Below are positions 16,495 to 20,582 of a DNA stretch of 64,000 bases, in pieces. The notes under the pieces were generated by a model. It did not search any database, was not told where the DNA came from, and saw nothing but the letters and a program-made list of their open reading frames with translations. This DNA is from Candidatus Omnitrophota bacterium (lineage in GTDB: Bacteria > Omnitrophota > Gorgyraeia > Gygaellales > Profunditerraquicolaceae). The stretch lies in NCBI GenBank assembly GCA_022710715.1, contig JAKLGJ010000002.1:147791-211790 (forward strand), read 5' to 3'. Each line of letters begins with the position of its first letter. Within the stretch, counting starts at the first letter, position 1. Both the position numbers and the translations under genes were made by a program.

Positions 16495-17112
16495 GTGCGC
16501 ATACTCAAGGCGAAGAAAAGCGGGCTGTTGTTCGTTATTTCCGGACCATCGGGATCAGGCAAGACCACGCTGGCCAACAGTTTGCTTGAGATCGGGGAAT
16601 TCCGGGGTCGCCTGGTGAAGAGCGTTTCGTTTACCACCCGGCCCAGGCGGACCGGTGAAAAGAATAAGCGGGACTATTTTTTCCTTACTGCCGCGGAATT
16701 CAAAAATCTGCGCCGGGCAAAAAAAATCCTTGAATGGACCAGGTATTTGGGGTATTATTACGGAACGGCCAGGGATTTTATCGAGGCCCAGATGGGAAAA
16801 GCCGAAGGCGTGCTCTTGTGTCTGGATATCAATGGCGCCCGGTCCATTAAGCGCGCATATCCCGATCGCGCAGTGACTATTTTTGTTAAACCGCCTTCGC
16901 TGAAAGATTTGCCTCTGCGCATTCAGAAGCGTTGCCGCACCACGCGCGTCGACGAGGTGCGCCGGAGGGTGAAGGTCGCCGAAAAAGAATTGCGCGCTGC
17001 GGGCAGCTATGATTATGTCCTGGTGAACAAGGACCTGAAGAAAGCGATCGCCCGTCTGCACAGGATTGTTCGAAGCCGTTTATCAAACTACAGGGCTGCA
17101 AGCCGCTCGTAG
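16495..17112 (+). CDS. gmk: guanylate kinase
   Basis: P-loop ISGPSGSGKTTL and TTRPRRTGE motif. A GTG start just after the yicC stop is inferred; the track start at 16360 overlaps yicC. Confidence 0.85.
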   Translation: MRILKAKKSGLLFVISGPSGSGKTTLANSLLEIGEFRGRLVKSVSFTTRPRRTGEKNKRDYFFLTAAEFKNLRRAKKILEWTRYLGYYYGTARDFIEAQMGKAEGVLLCLDINGARSIKRAYPDRAVTIFVKPPSLKDLPLRIQKRCRTTRVDEVRRRVKVAEKELRAAGSYDYVLVNKDLKKAIARLHRIVRSRLSNYRAASRS

Positions 17113-17158
17113 GCGGTTCTTGCAGCTTAGTTGTGTCAATACACAAGGGAGATCCGGT

Positions 17159-17365
17159 ATGGCATATGTATCGCTGGAGAAACTGTTGGATAAGACTGAC
17201 AGTTCGGTATTCAAGCTGGTTGTTCTGGCTTCCAAGAGGGCGCTGGAGATTGCCGAGGGACAGCCAAAGCTCACGGATAGCTTGAGCGTGACTGTTAAGC
17301 CGTCTATCATCGCTTTGCAGGAGATCATGGAAGGCAAAATAAAAGCGAAAGAGCTGAAGTCCTAG
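17159..17365 (+). CDS. rpoZ: DNA-directed RNA polymerase subunit omega
   Basis: 68 aa from MAYVSLEKLLDKTDSSVFKLVVLASKRALE. Canonical gmk-rpoZ-coaBC synteny. Confidence 0.75.
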   Translation: MAYVSLEKLLDKTDSSVFKLVVLASKRALEIAEGQPKLTDSLSVTVKPSIIALQEIMEGKIKAKELKS

Positions 17366-17366
17366 C

Positions 17367-17912
17367 ATGGGAAAACAAAAAAAGATTATACTCGGCGTCA
17401 CTGCCAGCGTGGCAATTTATAAAGCCTGCGAACTGGTACGGCGGCTCAAGGACAAGGGGTATGCTCTTGACGTGGTGATGACCGAGGACTCCAAGGAATT
17501 TATCCGTCCGATCCTGTTCGAGAGCCTGGCGGGTTCAAGCGTGCACAGCGGTCTTTTTACCGGTCCGACCAGCTGGGATATCGAACATGTTTCCCTCGCC
17601 GATAAAGCCGACCTGGTTTTAATCGCCCCGGCAACCGCCCATATCATCGCCAAGCTGGCAGCGGGACTGTGCGACGATCTCCTGTCGTGTGTGGTGTGCG
17701 CCACCAGAGCTCCGGTACTGATCTGCCCGGCGATGAACGAGAATATGTTTGTGCATCCCATCACCCGGCAGAATATCAAAAAGCTGGAGACGGCGGGATA
17801 TAGATTTGTGCAACCCAGAAAAGGGATGCTGGCGTGCGGTAAAGAAGGGGCCGGCTGTTTGGCTGAGGTTGAAACGATCGTGAAAGAAGTCGGGAAGATT
17901 TTGGCGACGTAG
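17367..17912 (+). CDS. coaC: phosphopantothenoylcysteine decarboxylase flavoprotein (CoaC domain only)
   Basis: 181 aa flavoprotein fold (GVTASVAIYK, PAMNENM). The CoaB ligase half is absent. The last 3 codons lie inside tRNA-Cys. Confidence 0.8.
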   Translation: MGKQKKIILGVTASVAIYKACELVRRLKDKGYALDVVMTEDSKEFIRPILFESLAGSSVHSGLFTGPTSWDIEHVSLADKADLVLIAPATAHIIAKLAAGLCDDLLSCVVCATRAPVLICPAMNENMFVHPITRQNIKKLETAGYRFVQPRKGMLACGKEGAGCLAEVETIVKEVGKILAT

Positions 17913-17977
17913 CCAAGCGGTAAGGCAGCTGTCTGCAAAACAGCTATTCAGCGGTTCGATTCCGCTCGTCGCCTCCA
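17903..17977 (+). tRNA. tRNA-Cys (anticodon GCA)
   Basis: Acceptor GGCGACG/CGTCGCC, discriminator T and encoded CCA. Anticodon stem-loop GCTGT-CTGCAAA-ACAGC, T-arm AGCGGTTCGATTCCGCT. Confidence 0.8.
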
Positions 17978-17992
17978 TTGTGCGGGTAGGAG

Positions 17993-18649
17993 ATGGCACG
18001 TCTCCGTAATTGTCTGAAGATTGAAAAGGCGATACTGTGGTATTTGGCGGGCCTGGTCGCCACAGACGGATGTTTAAGCAAAGACGCGCGGCACATCGAT
18101 ATTACTTCTAAAGATAGGCGATTTTTAAAAGCGTTGTGCGCGCGCATCGCGAGTAACTCGCGGGTATGTTCCAAGAATGTCGGTGGTCGGCCTTATGCGC
18201 GGGTGCAGTTGAGCAATAAATCCCTGTACGAGTTCTTTCTATCCATCGGATTAATGCCCCGCAAATCGTTAGTGCTGGGGAAATTGGCGGTGCCCGATAC
18301 GGGATTTGCGGATTTCTTGCGAGGAGTAATAGATGGCGACGGCAGTATCCGAAAGTGGAAGCATCCCGGGAATAAGAAAGAACAATGGAGCTTGCGTATT
18401 TATTCCGGCTCGCGTGAGTTTATTGGCTGGTTGCAGAAAGCCGCGAAGCGGGTGTTGGCTGTTCGCGGCAGGCTCTATCAGGAAAGAAGAACTCTTTGGA
18501 CATTGAAATACGGGAAAATGGTTTTAAAGGTGATCGCCCGGCGAAGTTATTACGACGGGTGTTTCGGATTGCCGAGAAAAACAGCGCTGGCAACAGCATG
18601 TTTAGCGTCTGATAGCGGATGGAAACGCAGCAAGACGGTTCTTAAGTAA
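17993..18649 (+). CDS. double-motif LAGLIDADG homing endonuclease, free-standing
   Basis: 218 aa with two LAGLIDADG motifs, LAGLVATDGCL and LRGVIDGDGSI, spaced as in a single-chain pseudo-dimer. Confidence 0.8.
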   Translation: MARLRNCLKIEKAILWYLAGLVATDGCLSKDARHIDITSKDRRFLKALCARIASNSRVCSKNVGGRPYARVQLSNKSLYEFFLSIGLMPRKSLVLGKLAVPDTGFADFLRGVIDGDGSIRKWKHPGNKKEQWSLRIYSGSREFIGWLQKAAKRVLAVRGRLYQERRTLWTLKYGKMVLKVIARRSYYDGCFGLPRKTALATACLASDSGWKRSKTVLK

Positions 18650-18656
18650 CGCGAGC

Positions 18657-18740
18657 GCCGGGGTGGCGGAACTGGCAGACGCACGAGACTTAAAATCTCG
18701 CGACCGTAAGGTTGTAAGGGTTCAACTCCCTTTCCCGGCA
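18657..18740 (+). tRNA. tRNA-Leu (anticodon TAA)
   Basis: Acceptor GCCGGGG/TCCCGGC (one G-T pair). Anticodon stem-loop CGAGA-CTTAAAA-TCTCG, long variable arm, T-arm GGGTTCAACTCCC. Confidence 0.8.
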
Positions 18741-18775
18741 TGTTTAAACTTTGTAACGGCAAAAGATAATCATTG

Positions 18776-18852
18776 CGGGCTCATAGCTCAGTTGGTTAGA
18801 GCGTTGCGTTGACATCGCAAAGGTCTGAGGTTCAAGTCCTCATGGGCCCACC
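18776..18852 (+). tRNA. tRNA-Val (anticodon GAC)
   Basis: GGGCTCATAGCTCAGTTGGTTAGAGC D-arm. Anticodon stem-loop TTGCG-TTGACAT-CGCAA, T-arm GGTTCAAGTCC, encoded CCA. Confidence 0.85.
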
Positions 18853-18860
18853 ATATTCCT

Positions 18861-20582
18861 ATGGAACTCGACATACTGCGTCATTCATGTTCTCACGTGA
18901 TGGCCAAAGCGGTCAAGCAGCTCTGGCCCGAGGTCAAGATCACCATCGGCCCTTCGATCGAAGACGGGTTTTATTACGACTTCGACAAGAAAGAGCCGTT
19001 TTCCGACGCTGATCTGGCGGCCATCGAGGGAAAGATGCGGGAGATCATCCGGCGCAACGAGCCGTTCGTGCGTCAGGAAATGTCCAAGCCGGAAGCCGAG
19101 GCGCTTTTCAACGGGCTCAAAGAACCCTATAAGATCGAGCTCATCCGCGCGATTGCCGACGAAAAAGTCTCGACATACAAAACCGGGGACGATTTTGTCG
19201 ATTTATGTCGCGGTCCGCATGTCGGATCCACCGGGGAGATCAAGGCTTTCAAATTGCTGTCGGTGGCCGGATCTTACTGGCACGGGATCGAGACCAATCC
19301 CATGCTCCAGCGGATCTACGGGACCTGTTTTGAGTCTCAAAAAGAGCTGGACGATTATTTGAAAGATCTGGAACAGAGAAAATTGCGTGATCACCGTAAG
19401 CTCGGTCCCGCATTAGAGCTCTTTGATATCTATCAGGAAGCAGCCGGCCCCGGGTTGGTTTTTTATCTGCCCAACGGAGCCCTGTTGCGTAAAATAATAG
19501 AGGATTACGAAAAAGAAGAGCATTTGAAACGCGGATACCAGCTGGTGATCACTCCGCACATAATGCAGGCAGAGCTCTGGAAAACGTCCGGTCACTGGGA
19601 TTATTACCGGGAGAATATGTATACGTTCAAGATAGACGAGAAAGAGTTTGTCTTGAAGCCGATGAACTGCCCCGGGCACATGCTTATCTATAAATCCAGG
19701 GTGCGCAGTTACCGCGACCTGCCCCTGCGTCTTTTCGAGCTGGGCACGGTTTACCGCCACGAGAAAGCCGGAGTAATGCACGGGTTGCTGCGGGTGCGCG
19801 GCTTCACCCAGGACGACGCGCACATCTTCTGTCTGCCGTCACAGGTCGAGACAGAGATACAATCCGTGGTGGAATTCGTGTTTACCACCATGAAAGTCTT
19901 CGGTTTTGACAAGATGGACATTGAGTTGAGCACCCGGCCTGCCAAATCGATCGGCTCGGACGAAGACTGGCGGCTGGCGACCGATGCGCTGGAGAATTCT
20001 TTAAAAGCGCTGGGGCTGTCCTATGAGATCAATGAAGGCGACGGGGCTTTTTACGGCCCGAAGATAGATATCAAATTAAAAGACGCTTTAAAACGCTCCT
20101 GGCAATGCGCGACCGTGCAATGCGACTTCAGTCTGCCTAAAAGGTTCGAACTGACGTATGTCGACGTTGACGGATCCGAGAAGCAGCCGATCATGCTGCA
20201 CCGGGTATTGCTGGGAAGCGTCGAGAGATTTACCGCCTGCTTGACCGAACAGTATATGGGCGATTTCCCTTTATGGCTGGCGCCGGTGCAGGTTCAGATC
20301 ATACCCATACGGGAAGATTTCCGGACGTACGCCGAGAGCGTGCGGTCGGCGCTGGAAGACAAAGGTATTCGCGCGGAGATTAATCTGCGCAACGAAACGC
20401 TTAACAAGCGCATCCGTCAGGCGGAGGTCGCCAGGATTCCCTATAGCGTGATAATCGGCGAACGGGAAGTTGCCTCGCGCACTGTTGCGGTCCGCAAGCG
20501 CCGCGATGGCGATCAGGGCGCTATGTCAGTCGACGATTTTATTGGCCAGGTGAGCCAGCAGATAAACACTCGCTCGCAGTAG
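18861..20582 (+). CDS. thrS: threonine--tRNA ligase (lacks N-terminal TGS domain)
   Basis: 573 aa beginning at the N2 editing-domain motif ILRHSCSHVMAKAVKQLWP. Class II catalytic core and C-terminal anticodon-binding domain. Confidence 0.9.
   Translation: MELDILRHSCSHVMAKAVKQLWPEVKITIGPSIEDGFYYDFDKKEPFSDADLAAIEGKMREIIRRNEPFVRQEMSKPEAEALFNGLKEPYKIELIRAIADEKVSTYKTGDDFVDLCRGPHVGSTGEIKAFKLLSVAGSYWHGIETNPMLQRIYGTCFESQKELDDYLKDLEQRKLRDHRKLGPALELFDIYQEAAGPGLVFYLPNGALLRKIIEDYEKEEHLKRGYQLVITPHIMQAELWKTSGHWDYYRENMYTFKIDEKEFVLKPMNCPGHMLIYKSRVRSYRDLPLRLFELGTVYRHEKAGVMHGLLRVRGFTQDDAHIFCLPSQVETEIQSVVEFVFTTMKVFGFDKMDIELSTRPAKSIGSDEDWRLATDALENSLKALGLSYEINEGDGAFYGPKIDIKLKDALKRSWQCATVQCDFSLPKRFELTYVDVDGSEKQPIMLHRVLLGSVERFTACLTEQYMGDFPLWLAPVQVQIIPIREDFRTYAESVRSALEDKGIRAEINLRNETLNKRIRQAEVARIPYSVIIGEREVASRTVAVRKRRDGDQGAMSVDDFIGQVSQQINTRSQ

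Follow-up and report, generated by a model that had tools for sequence, protein, structure and literature searches.

The window analyzed here, a 64,000-nt stretch of Candidatus Omnitrophota DNA whose own coordinates we use for features of the locus, carries a free-standing gene for a single-chain LAGLIDADG homing endonuclease between a tRNA-Cys and a tRNA-Leu(UAA) gene. It is likely that this homing endonuclease gene (HEG) is selfish and forms a small mobile cassette with the tRNA-Leu(UAA) downstream of it, cutting HEG-less copies of tRNA-Leu and spreading by intronless homing. The direct observations are the class, fold and catalytic residues of the protein, the constancy of its site, polymorphism for its presence among relatives, remnants of the gene, a swap of the tRNA allele, stubs of tRNA-Leu beside the gene and purifying selection.

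The endonuclease gene and its partner tRNA

The locus contains the following features, with those of the element given before its surroundings.

17993..18649, + strand: free-standing single-chain LAGLIDADG homing endonuclease gene, 218 aa, ATG start (open reading frame, ORF; Pfam PF14528)
18044..18076, + strand: LAGLIDADG motif 1, LAGLVATDGCL, residues 18-28, with catalytic D25
18317..18349, + strand: LAGLIDADG motif 2, LRGVIDGDGSI, residues 109-119, with catalytic D116
18650..18656, + strand: 7-nt spacer from the endonuclease stop codon to tRNA-Leu
18657..18740, + strand: tRNA-Leu(UAA), 'GCCGGGG' allele, which travels with the element (ARAGORN, Rfam)
17978..17992, + strand: 15-nt spacer ttgtgcgggtaggag, its AGGAG abutting the ATG (read from the sequence)
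17903..17977, + strand: tRNA-Cys(GCA), the usual upstream neighbor of the element (ARAGORN; Rfam tRNA, 68.2 bits)
18777..18853, + strand: tRNA-Val(GAC), the right-hand boundary of the segment swapped between loci L095 and L099 (ARAGORN, Rfam)
17367..17912, + strand: coaC-like flavoprotein gene, context only (Pfam Flavoprotein, E 1.3e-34; NCBIfam coaBC/coaC models match the N-terminal half)
18861..20582, + strand: thrS, context only, the host marker used for sampling relatives (ORF)

The gene is present as a single copy in the window. It lies 15 nt from tRNA-Cys and 7 nt from tRNA-Leu; an initial annotation, made from the letters of the window, had the first distance right and placed the second at 8 nt. 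The ORF list has no host ORF around the gene, and all three flanking tRNAs are complete by both ARAGORN and Rfam. A search for a group I intron core, which that annotation had suggested, was run with Rfam at E<=10 over 17000-19600 and returned the three tRNAs and chance-level matches, with no Intron_gpI or other ribozyme. With no intron match, complete tRNAs and flanks of 15 and 7 nt, the gene is free-standing, as first annotated, and does not encode the endonuclease or maturase of a group I intron.

Pfam LAGLIDADG_3 (PF14528) matches the protein in two stretches (E 2.4e-13). Matches to Hom_end and to the PI-PfuI subdomain are weak and fall under the Pfam cut-offs, and that to LAGLIDADG_WhiA reaches 20.9 bits, under its cut-off of 23.2. 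Two LAGLIDADG halves fill the chain, leaving no extra domain and none of the Hint splicing domain context of an intein-associated endonuclease. An AlphaFold2 (AF2) model built on a 30-sequence alignment (predicted local distance difference test, pLDDT, 89.2; predicted template-modeling score, pTM, 0.87) consists of two alpha-beta-beta-alpha-beta-beta-alpha halves, with D25 in the helix formed by residues 12-25 and D116 in the helix formed by residues 102-116. The top Foldseek match is I-Tsp061I (E 1.4e-11, template-modeling (TM) score 0.69-0.73), with I-DmoI next and WhiA and the maturases I-AniI and bI3 ranked lower; I-Tsp061I is also the best sequence match among solved structures (E 6e-9). 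The two Pfam stretches, the AF2 fold and the Foldseek matches bear out the single-chain pseudo-dimeric architecture that had been proposed, and the window protein is a two-motif LAGLIDADG enzyme of this kind with both catalytic Asp residues. Both motifs that had been called, at about residues 18 and 120, are present, the second of them at residues 109-119.

The acidic residues, a check of which the initial annotation had proposed, are conserved across the family: position 25 is Asp in 79/81 members, Glu in one and a gap in one, and D116 and G117 are kept in 81/81. Forty-six positions are at least 95% identical across the 81 members. The family N-terminus is conserved as well (M1, R5, L8 and I10), and the ATG at 17993 is therefore the true start. 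In the closest family pairs dN/dS is 0.06-0.19, which suggests that intact copies are kept up by purifying selection as probable active nucleases.

A protein database search yielded at least 467 family proteins, nearly all of ~219 aa and mostly from Omnitrophota, with 44-58% identity among the 120 matches listed. Of 1.84 billion cluster representatives, 473 matched at E<=1e-10, 31 of them at E<=1e-30. In GTDB species genomes 122 endonuclease loci were detected, and the locus counts use the best 80. These 80 come from Omnitrophota, from the candidate phyla radiation (CPR) lineages Andersenbacteria, Saccharibacteria, Sungiibacteriota, Doudnabacteria, Giovannonibacteria, Paceibacterota and Parcubacteria, and from metagenome-assembled genomes labelled Deltaproteobacteria (one a complete 2.7-Mb genome) and Armatimonadota.

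A complete, uninterrupted tRNA-Leu(UAA) lies directly 3' of the endonuclease ORF in ~75/80 loci, and in most of the 80 the stop codon is 0-10 nt ahead of it. The upstream side is more variable. tRNA-Cys is the usual neighbor there, the ATG often lying 5-25 nt past it, and tRNA-Val or tRNA-Thr takes its place in some loci: L007 has tRNA-Thr upstream of the ORF and Tyr and Gly downstream, and L034, L038, L046, L050 and L066 have the order Cys-Val-ORF-Leu. The link of the element is to tRNA-Leu and neither to tRNA-Cys nor to the tRNA cluster as such; the initial annotation placed the gene correctly inside a tRNA cluster and missed this specific tie. The order gmk-coaC-Cys-ORF-Leu-Val-thrS-infC is conserved in Omnitrophota, and other phyla keep the tRNA neighbors only. 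We take the Omnitrophota tRNA order to resemble glyW-cysT-leuZ of E. coli; blastn with the Cys-Leu block of Omnitrophota as query found nothing in E. coli genomes.

Occupied and empty sites among close relatives

The 80 endonuclease-anchored loci were found through the endonuclease itself and cannot show its absence; relatives were therefore sampled through the neighboring ThrRS. This sample, unbiased for the endonuclease gene, comprises 80 metagenome loci with ThrRS 68-83% identical, and the 61 that have tRNA-Cys and tRNA-Leu(UAA) upstream of thrS are informative. Forty of the 61 are empty, with a Cys-Leu spacer of 4-61 nt, another 15 have a spacer of 76-436 nt, and a full ORF is found in 6 (spacer 674-806 nt). 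The sequences of the empty-site spacers are not conserved. The nearest relatives of the window, L081-L083 (ThrRS 80-81% identical), are themselves without the ORF: L081 and L082 have 14-nt spacers, and L083 has a 109-nt spacer with no detectable remnant. Comparison of the locus among related genomes, as recommended by the initial annotation, thus uncovered empty sites.

Some of the loci without a full ORF retain pieces of one. A hidden Markov model (HMM) of the family detects the C-terminal 120 aa and an out-of-frame N-terminal piece in L132, the last 41 aa in L086, and the last 13 codons within the 61-nt spacer of L108; on the 76-436-nt spacers it gave nothing convincing beyond these three loci. 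Occupancy is scattered on the ThrRS tree, with 7 Fitch parsimony changes for 9 occupied tips (random mean 8.5). Identity of the HEG correlates with that of ThrRS at r 0.53, compared with 0.87 for the control pair CoaC and ThrRS. Scattered occupancy together with remnants is the pattern left by a selfish HEG that invades sites, decays there and is lost again. The gene also has the other marks of a free-standing HEG, lying outside any intron or intein, starting at its own conserved Met between two tRNA genes, and being present or absent at one homologous site in relatives. The synteny of the 80 endonuclease-anchored loci had first suggested a fixed, vertically inherited core gene of Omnitrophota, an idea we rejected because most ThrRS-anchored relatives are empty.

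Several spacers deserve separate description. Those of 76-436 nt in L097, L109, L151, L159, L128, L130, L158, L083, L118, L160, L142, L127 and L137 could be fully decayed remnants or other insertions. Two of these loci with intermediate spacers, L109 and L128, have a D-loop variant common to the HEG-linked alleles of L023 and L140. In L102, L107, L131 and L152, 14-29-nt spacers next to a GCCG-type tRNA-Leu read ...TTAATTA(A/G)AAT..., which is similar to how occupied loci such as L028 and L033 read over the final codons of the ORF, its stop and the spacer 3' of it. Such short spacers may have lost nearly all of an ORF by deletion, or may be native sequence that lends the ORF its stop. In L121 tRNA-Leu was not found between Cys and Val.

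Omnitrophota have two sharply different alleles of tRNA-Leu(UAA), with acceptor stems GCCGGGG... and GGGCAAG.... The window has the GCCGGGG allele, and its empty-site nearest relatives L081-L083 have GGGCAAG; the empty-site alleles of L099 and L081 read GGGCAAGTGGTGGAATGGCATACACGA.... In the ThrRS-anchored set the GCCG type accompanies 6/9 full or partial ORFs and the GGGC type 43/55 empty sites (Fisher p 0.012, uncorrected for relatedness). At matched ThrRS identity >0.65, tRNA-Leu identity is 0.72-0.74 for occupied-empty pairs and 0.80-0.84 for empty-empty pairs; for occupied-occupied pairs it is 0.68-0.80, above the occupied-empty value in five of six ThrRS bins. The effect of occupancy on tRNA-Cys and tRNA-Val at matched ThrRS identity is small or inconsistent, and tRNA-Leu is the only one of the three tRNAs that clearly tracks occupancy. 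The difference extends within one allele type: over the first ~30 nt, which comprise the acceptor 5' strand, the D-arm and the first bases beyond it, GGGC-type alleles differ from the empty-site consensus in 17/17 HEG-linked and 9/43 empty-site copies (Fisher 8e-9, uncorrected for relatedness).

One pair of loci captures the exchange itself. L095 is occupied and L099 is empty. Over the stretch from tRNA-Val through thrS the two share 97.8% identity, and a single indel is all that separates their tRNA-Cys genes. Between tRNA-Cys and tRNA-Val, L095 has the ORF and a GCCG-type tRNA-Leu, whereas L099 has an 11-nt spacer and a GGGC-type tRNA-Leu; identity resumes at tRNA-Val. Downstream of the tRNA cluster L095:2998-4915 and L099:1759-3671 are 97.8% identical, whereas upstream, on the coaC side, L095:530-2290 and L099:1-1718 are 87.4% identical; this change in identity marks a recombination breakpoint at the endonuclease locus. 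This swap of ORF plus tRNA-Leu is the co-conversion that characterizes a free-standing HEG. L114 and L111, in which a Cys-Leu-Val block 74% identical lies within flanks that are 87-93% identical, show a block replacement of the kind found between L095 and L099.

These comparisons bear most directly on the alternative that the gene is a domesticated, vertically inherited LAGLIDADG protein with a host function, for example a WhiA-like DNA- or RNA-binding factor for the tRNA operon. Such a function would fit the strong purifying selection (dN/dS 0.06-0.19), the 46 nearly invariant positions across phyla, the constant genomic position, the partial congruence with ThrRS (r 0.53), the largely host-adapted GC content and the occurrence of WhiA among the structural matches. 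We nevertheless regard it as unlikely. A full copy is present in only 6/61 closest-relative loci, alongside three truncated remnants and scattered occupancy, and the near-identical L095 and L099 differ in the presence of the endonuclease. The protein also retains both catalytic Asp residues, and its 218 aa are filled by the two LAGLIDADG halves, leaving no WhiA-like extra helix-turn-helix (HTH) domain. WhiA proteins have lost the catalytic acidic residues, carry a C-terminal HTH domain and are uniformly conserved in their host lineages. The window family resembles WhiA (PDB 3hyi) in its two-domain LAGLIDADG fold and in being an ordinary chromosomal gene, but differs in keeping both Asp, in having no extra domain and in its sporadic presence. 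The domesticated nuclease or maturase offered as one explanation in the initial annotation is likewise at odds with the presence and absence of the gene among close relatives, the truncated remnants and the swapped tRNA-Leu allele.

Two observations concern the neighboring protein genes. The stop codon of coaC lies inside tRNA-Cys (10-nt overlap, window 17903-17912), and the initial annotation suggested that the endonuclease might explain this stand-alone coaC fused to tRNA-Cys. The same overlap or abutment occurs in the endonuclease-less relatives L089, L090 and L144 and is therefore a lineage trait and no consequence of insertion. A typical bacterial ThrRS has ~640 aa with an N-terminal TGS domain. 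The ThrRS ORF of the window (18861-20582) has 573 aa and starts directly at MELDILRHSCSHVMA, and an equal length recurs in relatives; judged from this length and start, the lineage may be without the TGS domain.

tRNA-Leu stubs and the proposed position of the break

In eight occupied loci, a 14-32-nt stub of the 5' end of tRNA-Leu lies directly upstream of the ORF. The stubs and the complete tRNA-Leu genes downstream are as follows.

L007, L014, L017, L018: exact stub GGGCAAGTGGTGGA...; downstream complete tRNA-Leu of GCCG type
L046, L066: stub of GGGC type with two mismatches; downstream complete tRNA-Leu of GCCG type
L038: stub of GCCG type; downstream complete tRNA-Leu of GGGC type
L050: stub of GCCG type; downstream complete tRNA-Leu of GCCG type

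The allele type of the stub is thus opposite to that of the downstream tRNA-Leu in 7/8 loci, the exception being L050. The 3' limit of the stub is at tRNA positions 22-32 in five loci. In L007, L017 and L018 the tRNA-derived sequence continues into the first codons of the ORF, to about position 20-24, and the ATG of the ORF is that of AATGGCA in the tRNA D-loop. The ORF of the window starts with ATGGCACG, the same as in L007. The HEGs with stubs share only 42-71% identity among themselves, and those most closely related to them are stub-less, so the exact stubs are unlikely to be one ancient relic. The stubs would place the break inside the tRNA gene.

This placement has to be weighed against a target in the spacer or junction between tRNA-Cys and tRNA-Leu, which would reduce the tRNA-Leu allele differences to hitch-hiking. 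Most ORFs do lie exactly between the two tRNAs, 5-25 nt from Cys and 0-10 nt from Leu, and empty spacers of 4-20 nt would let a 20-22-bp site span both tRNA ends. We nonetheless think a spacer target quite improbable. The element stays by tRNA-Leu where no tRNA-Cys adjoins it (tRNA-Thr in L007, and the five loci with the order Cys-Val-ORF-Leu), the 14-32-nt stubs put the break inside the tRNA gene, and the spacer sequences of empty sites are unconserved.

The limits of the stubs also speak to a possible origin from an intron. In cyanobacteria and plastids, tRNA-Leu(UAA) is the textbook example of a gene that hosts an old group I intron, which sits in the anticodon loop. Given this host and the fact that the closest solved structures are intron-encoded enzymes, the gene could be pictured as the relic of an intron-encoded endonuclease whose group I intron in tRNA-Leu(UAA) has since lost its ribozyme, much like the intron-less relic considered in the initial annotation. 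We find this very hard to sustain, because Rfam at E<=10 gave neither Intron_gpI nor any other ribozyme, the flanks are merely 15 and 7 nt, the downstream tRNA-Leu is complete and uninterrupted in ~75 loci, the stubs end in the D-arm to anticodon-stem region, away from the anticodon loop, and no intron-embedded family member was found across hundreds of loci; the polymorphism, remnants and swapped allele in relatives also speak against a relic. The structural relatives I-Tsp061I and I-DmoI (PDB 2dch, 1b24 and others) share the single-chain two-motif fold and a size of ~190-220 aa, but are encoded inside archaeal rRNA introns, whereas the window family is bacterial, intron-free and tRNA-linked, and identity is 16-20%.

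Partial duplication of a tRNA end beside inserted DNA is typical of integrative elements that target tRNA genes, and part of a tRNA gene end is indeed duplicated beside the ORF, but we give almost no credence to the gene being cargo of a larger integrative element with the tRNA gene as its attachment site: the L095/L099 difference is confined to the ORF and tRNA-Leu, no other inserted gene lies between coaC and thrS, and what is duplicated is the tRNA 5' end rather than its 3' end.

A homing model and its meaning

Our preferred account of a selfish HEG with its own tRNA-Leu is the following. The enzyme would cut within HEG-less tRNA-Leu(UAA) genes, at about nt 22-32 in the region of the D-arm and anticodon stem, and the break would be mended by recombination with an occupied allele. 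Repair would copy in both the ORF and the complete tRNA-Leu of the donor, which amounts to intronless homing with co-conversion, and on this proposal the essential tRNA would therefore never be lost. The occupied allele would be protected by the reduction of the old target to a short 5' stub or by its deletion, and the linked tRNA-Leu would be further protected by its acceptor and D-arm substitutions. The gene would have no promoter of its own, and would probably share the transcript of the tRNA operon; tRNA processing would then free its message or truncate it. Copies would decay and be deleted, and sites would be re-invaded over time. Four parts of this model are inference: that the enzyme cleaves DNA, where exactly it cuts, that the linked allele withstands it, and that the gene is transcribed together with the tRNAs.

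A number of points weigh against the model. The proposed target and linked-allele resistance are drawn from comparative anatomy, the survey of empty sites covers Omnitrophota, and the Fisher tests are uncorrected for relatedness. HEG identity partly tracks host ThrRS identity (r 0.53), near-identical HEGs in divergent hosts were not seen, and the closest relative of the window copy among the matches listed is 58% identical, so no recent transfer is evident for this copy. The composition of the ORF is largely host-adapted (GC 0.499 and third-position GC, GC3, 0.557, compared with GC3 0.50-0.68 in neighboring genes and a window GC of 0.535); it is adapted largely, not fully, and the native-looking GC content of the initial annotation holds to that extent. 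No phage or viral carrier was found that would account for the spread across phyla: in 50,697 phage records tblastn matches were confined to LAGLIDADG proteins of 23-27% identity, and a scan of IMG/VR found no relative. The HEG-linked, GGGC-type tRNA-Leu of L042 has a D-arm like that of empty sites, and its differences begin only with the anticodon stem. Finally, the window itself has no clear tRNA-Leu stub: the 15 nt upstream of its ATG match the tRNA-Leu 5' end at ~9/13, below the threshold of the stub search, and are possibly a decayed stub.

The setting of the gene constrains how it could be expressed. A promoter and terminator consensus scan between the tRNAs gave nothing above shuffle expectation. 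The gap from the upstream tRNA to the ATG is 5-17 nt in 24/48 measurable loci, leaving little room for a ribosome-binding site. At the other end, no in-frame stop precedes tRNA-Leu in 25/75 loci, including nearly all CPR loci (L008, L017, L025, L027, L031, L032, L042, L043, L045, L047, L056-L059, L062, L064, L066, L068, L070-L074, L076 and L077). These frames close either within tRNA-Leu, in many cases at the TAA of the anticodon or after ~47 nt, or past it, and that of L008 reads through the whole tRNA-Leu. An RNase P cut at the tRNA 5' end, if made, would leave a stop-less mRNA at these 25 loci.

In six relatives a second LAGLIDADG ORF, of ~229-257 aa and only distantly related to the window protein (24-26% identity), lies between coaC and tRNA-Cys.

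L102:3964-4653; L107:1671-2441; L109:2744-3508: second LAGLIDADG ORF
L110:3931-4704; L114:4040-4807; L152:813-1583: second LAGLIDADG ORF

It is stop-less in 5/6, its frame running through the whole tRNA-Cys gene, and it is linked to a distinct tRNA-Cys allele (GGCGTGGTACCC... vs GGCGACGTAGCC...). No tRNA-Cys stubs were seen upstream of it in the six loci. From this arrangement the second family looks like a HEG-plus-tRNA cassette design aimed at tRNA-Cys.

Database gene models for the main family are inconsistent. The window protein appears there as the 201-aa P0001 (92% of the query), in which part of the conserved N-terminus is missing, and L028:4001-4825 (P0061) has a ~55-aa insertion in its C-terminal half. 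P0029 and P0090 have N-terminal extensions of 35 and 23 residues with the common stretch VVRQLSAKQLF, similar to what the second family has at its C-terminus where its frame translates tRNA-Cys (...RELSAKQLFTGS...); these extensions are probably tRNA-Cys read-through too. Gene callers often extend ORFs of this kind through adjacent tRNA genes or shorten them.

The closest precedent for the proposed cassette is SegB of phage T4, a free-standing GIY-YIG homing endonuclease encoded in the T4 tRNA gene cluster that recognizes tRNA gene sequence and whose homing carries neighboring tRNA genes along, displacing those of the recipient (PMC2330249). Both are free-standing genes among tRNA genes, and the co-transfer of tRNA genes matches the ORF-plus-tRNA-Leu swap between L095 and L099. 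SegB differs in being a GIY-YIG rather than a LAGLIDADG enzyme, in acting in phage genomes during co-infection, the window family sitting in bacterial chromosomes of several phyla, and in having the T-psi-C motif as its conserved core, whereas the window family would target the D-arm/anticodon-stem region of one tRNA. More broadly, in intronless homing by the T4 Seg and Mob endonucleases (reviewed in PMC3984707 and PMC2988022) the endonuclease gene lies beside its target, the HEG-less allele is cut, flanks are co-converted and the HEG-linked allele differs, all of which is predicted for the window family. In contrast to those systems, the apparent target of the window family is a single essential tRNA gene for which a whole replacement is supplied, sometimes with a 5' stub left over, and several of its ORFs have no stop codon ahead of the tRNA. 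LAGLIDADG endonucleases of the same superfamily also target conserved RNA genes in CPR hosts, but as intervening sequences inside rRNA genes, in a report that never mentions 'tRNA', 'free-standing' or 'intergenic' (PMC11270868).

Free-standing homing endonucleases and intronless homing are already established. A full-text literature search found no description of a tRNA-Leu-linked bacterial LAGLIDADG family, and this large family is apparently undescribed. What would be new, as we infer it from the comparisons above, is that one bacterial LAGLIDADG family, spread over several phyla, strikes within an essential tRNA gene and provides a substitute for it. We also consider it possible, though short of probable, that the family acts as a gene drive for tRNA alleles in bacteria, attacking the interior of the essential tRNA-Leu(UAA) and carrying a resistant replacement, with the second family doing likewise at tRNA-Cys. 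On that reading an attack on an essential, usually single-copy tRNA-Leu is affordable because the element carries a complete resistant replacement. The host tRNA-Leu allele would then be overwritten at every homing event, with a 5' stub remaining in some cases. Such cassettes of HEG and tRNA would offer selfish nucleases a general, undescribed and intron-free route into essential RNA genes, and would drive the turnover of tRNA sequences in Omnitrophota, CPR and other phyla.

Hosts normally tolerate a homing endonuclease that strikes an essential RNA gene, since its sequence is spliced out of the transcript as part of a self-splicing intron. The window family seems to solve the problem differently, by bringing along a spare copy of the tRNA gene that it destroys. 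If confirmed, this would be a new strategy in the repertoire of selfish nucleases, and the family would make available many natural single-chain meganucleases that are compact (~219 aa) and have a conserved, predictable target. It would also explain the coexistence of two sharply different tRNA-Leu(UAA) alleles among close Omnitrophota relatives and mark the tRNA cluster as a recombination hot spot.

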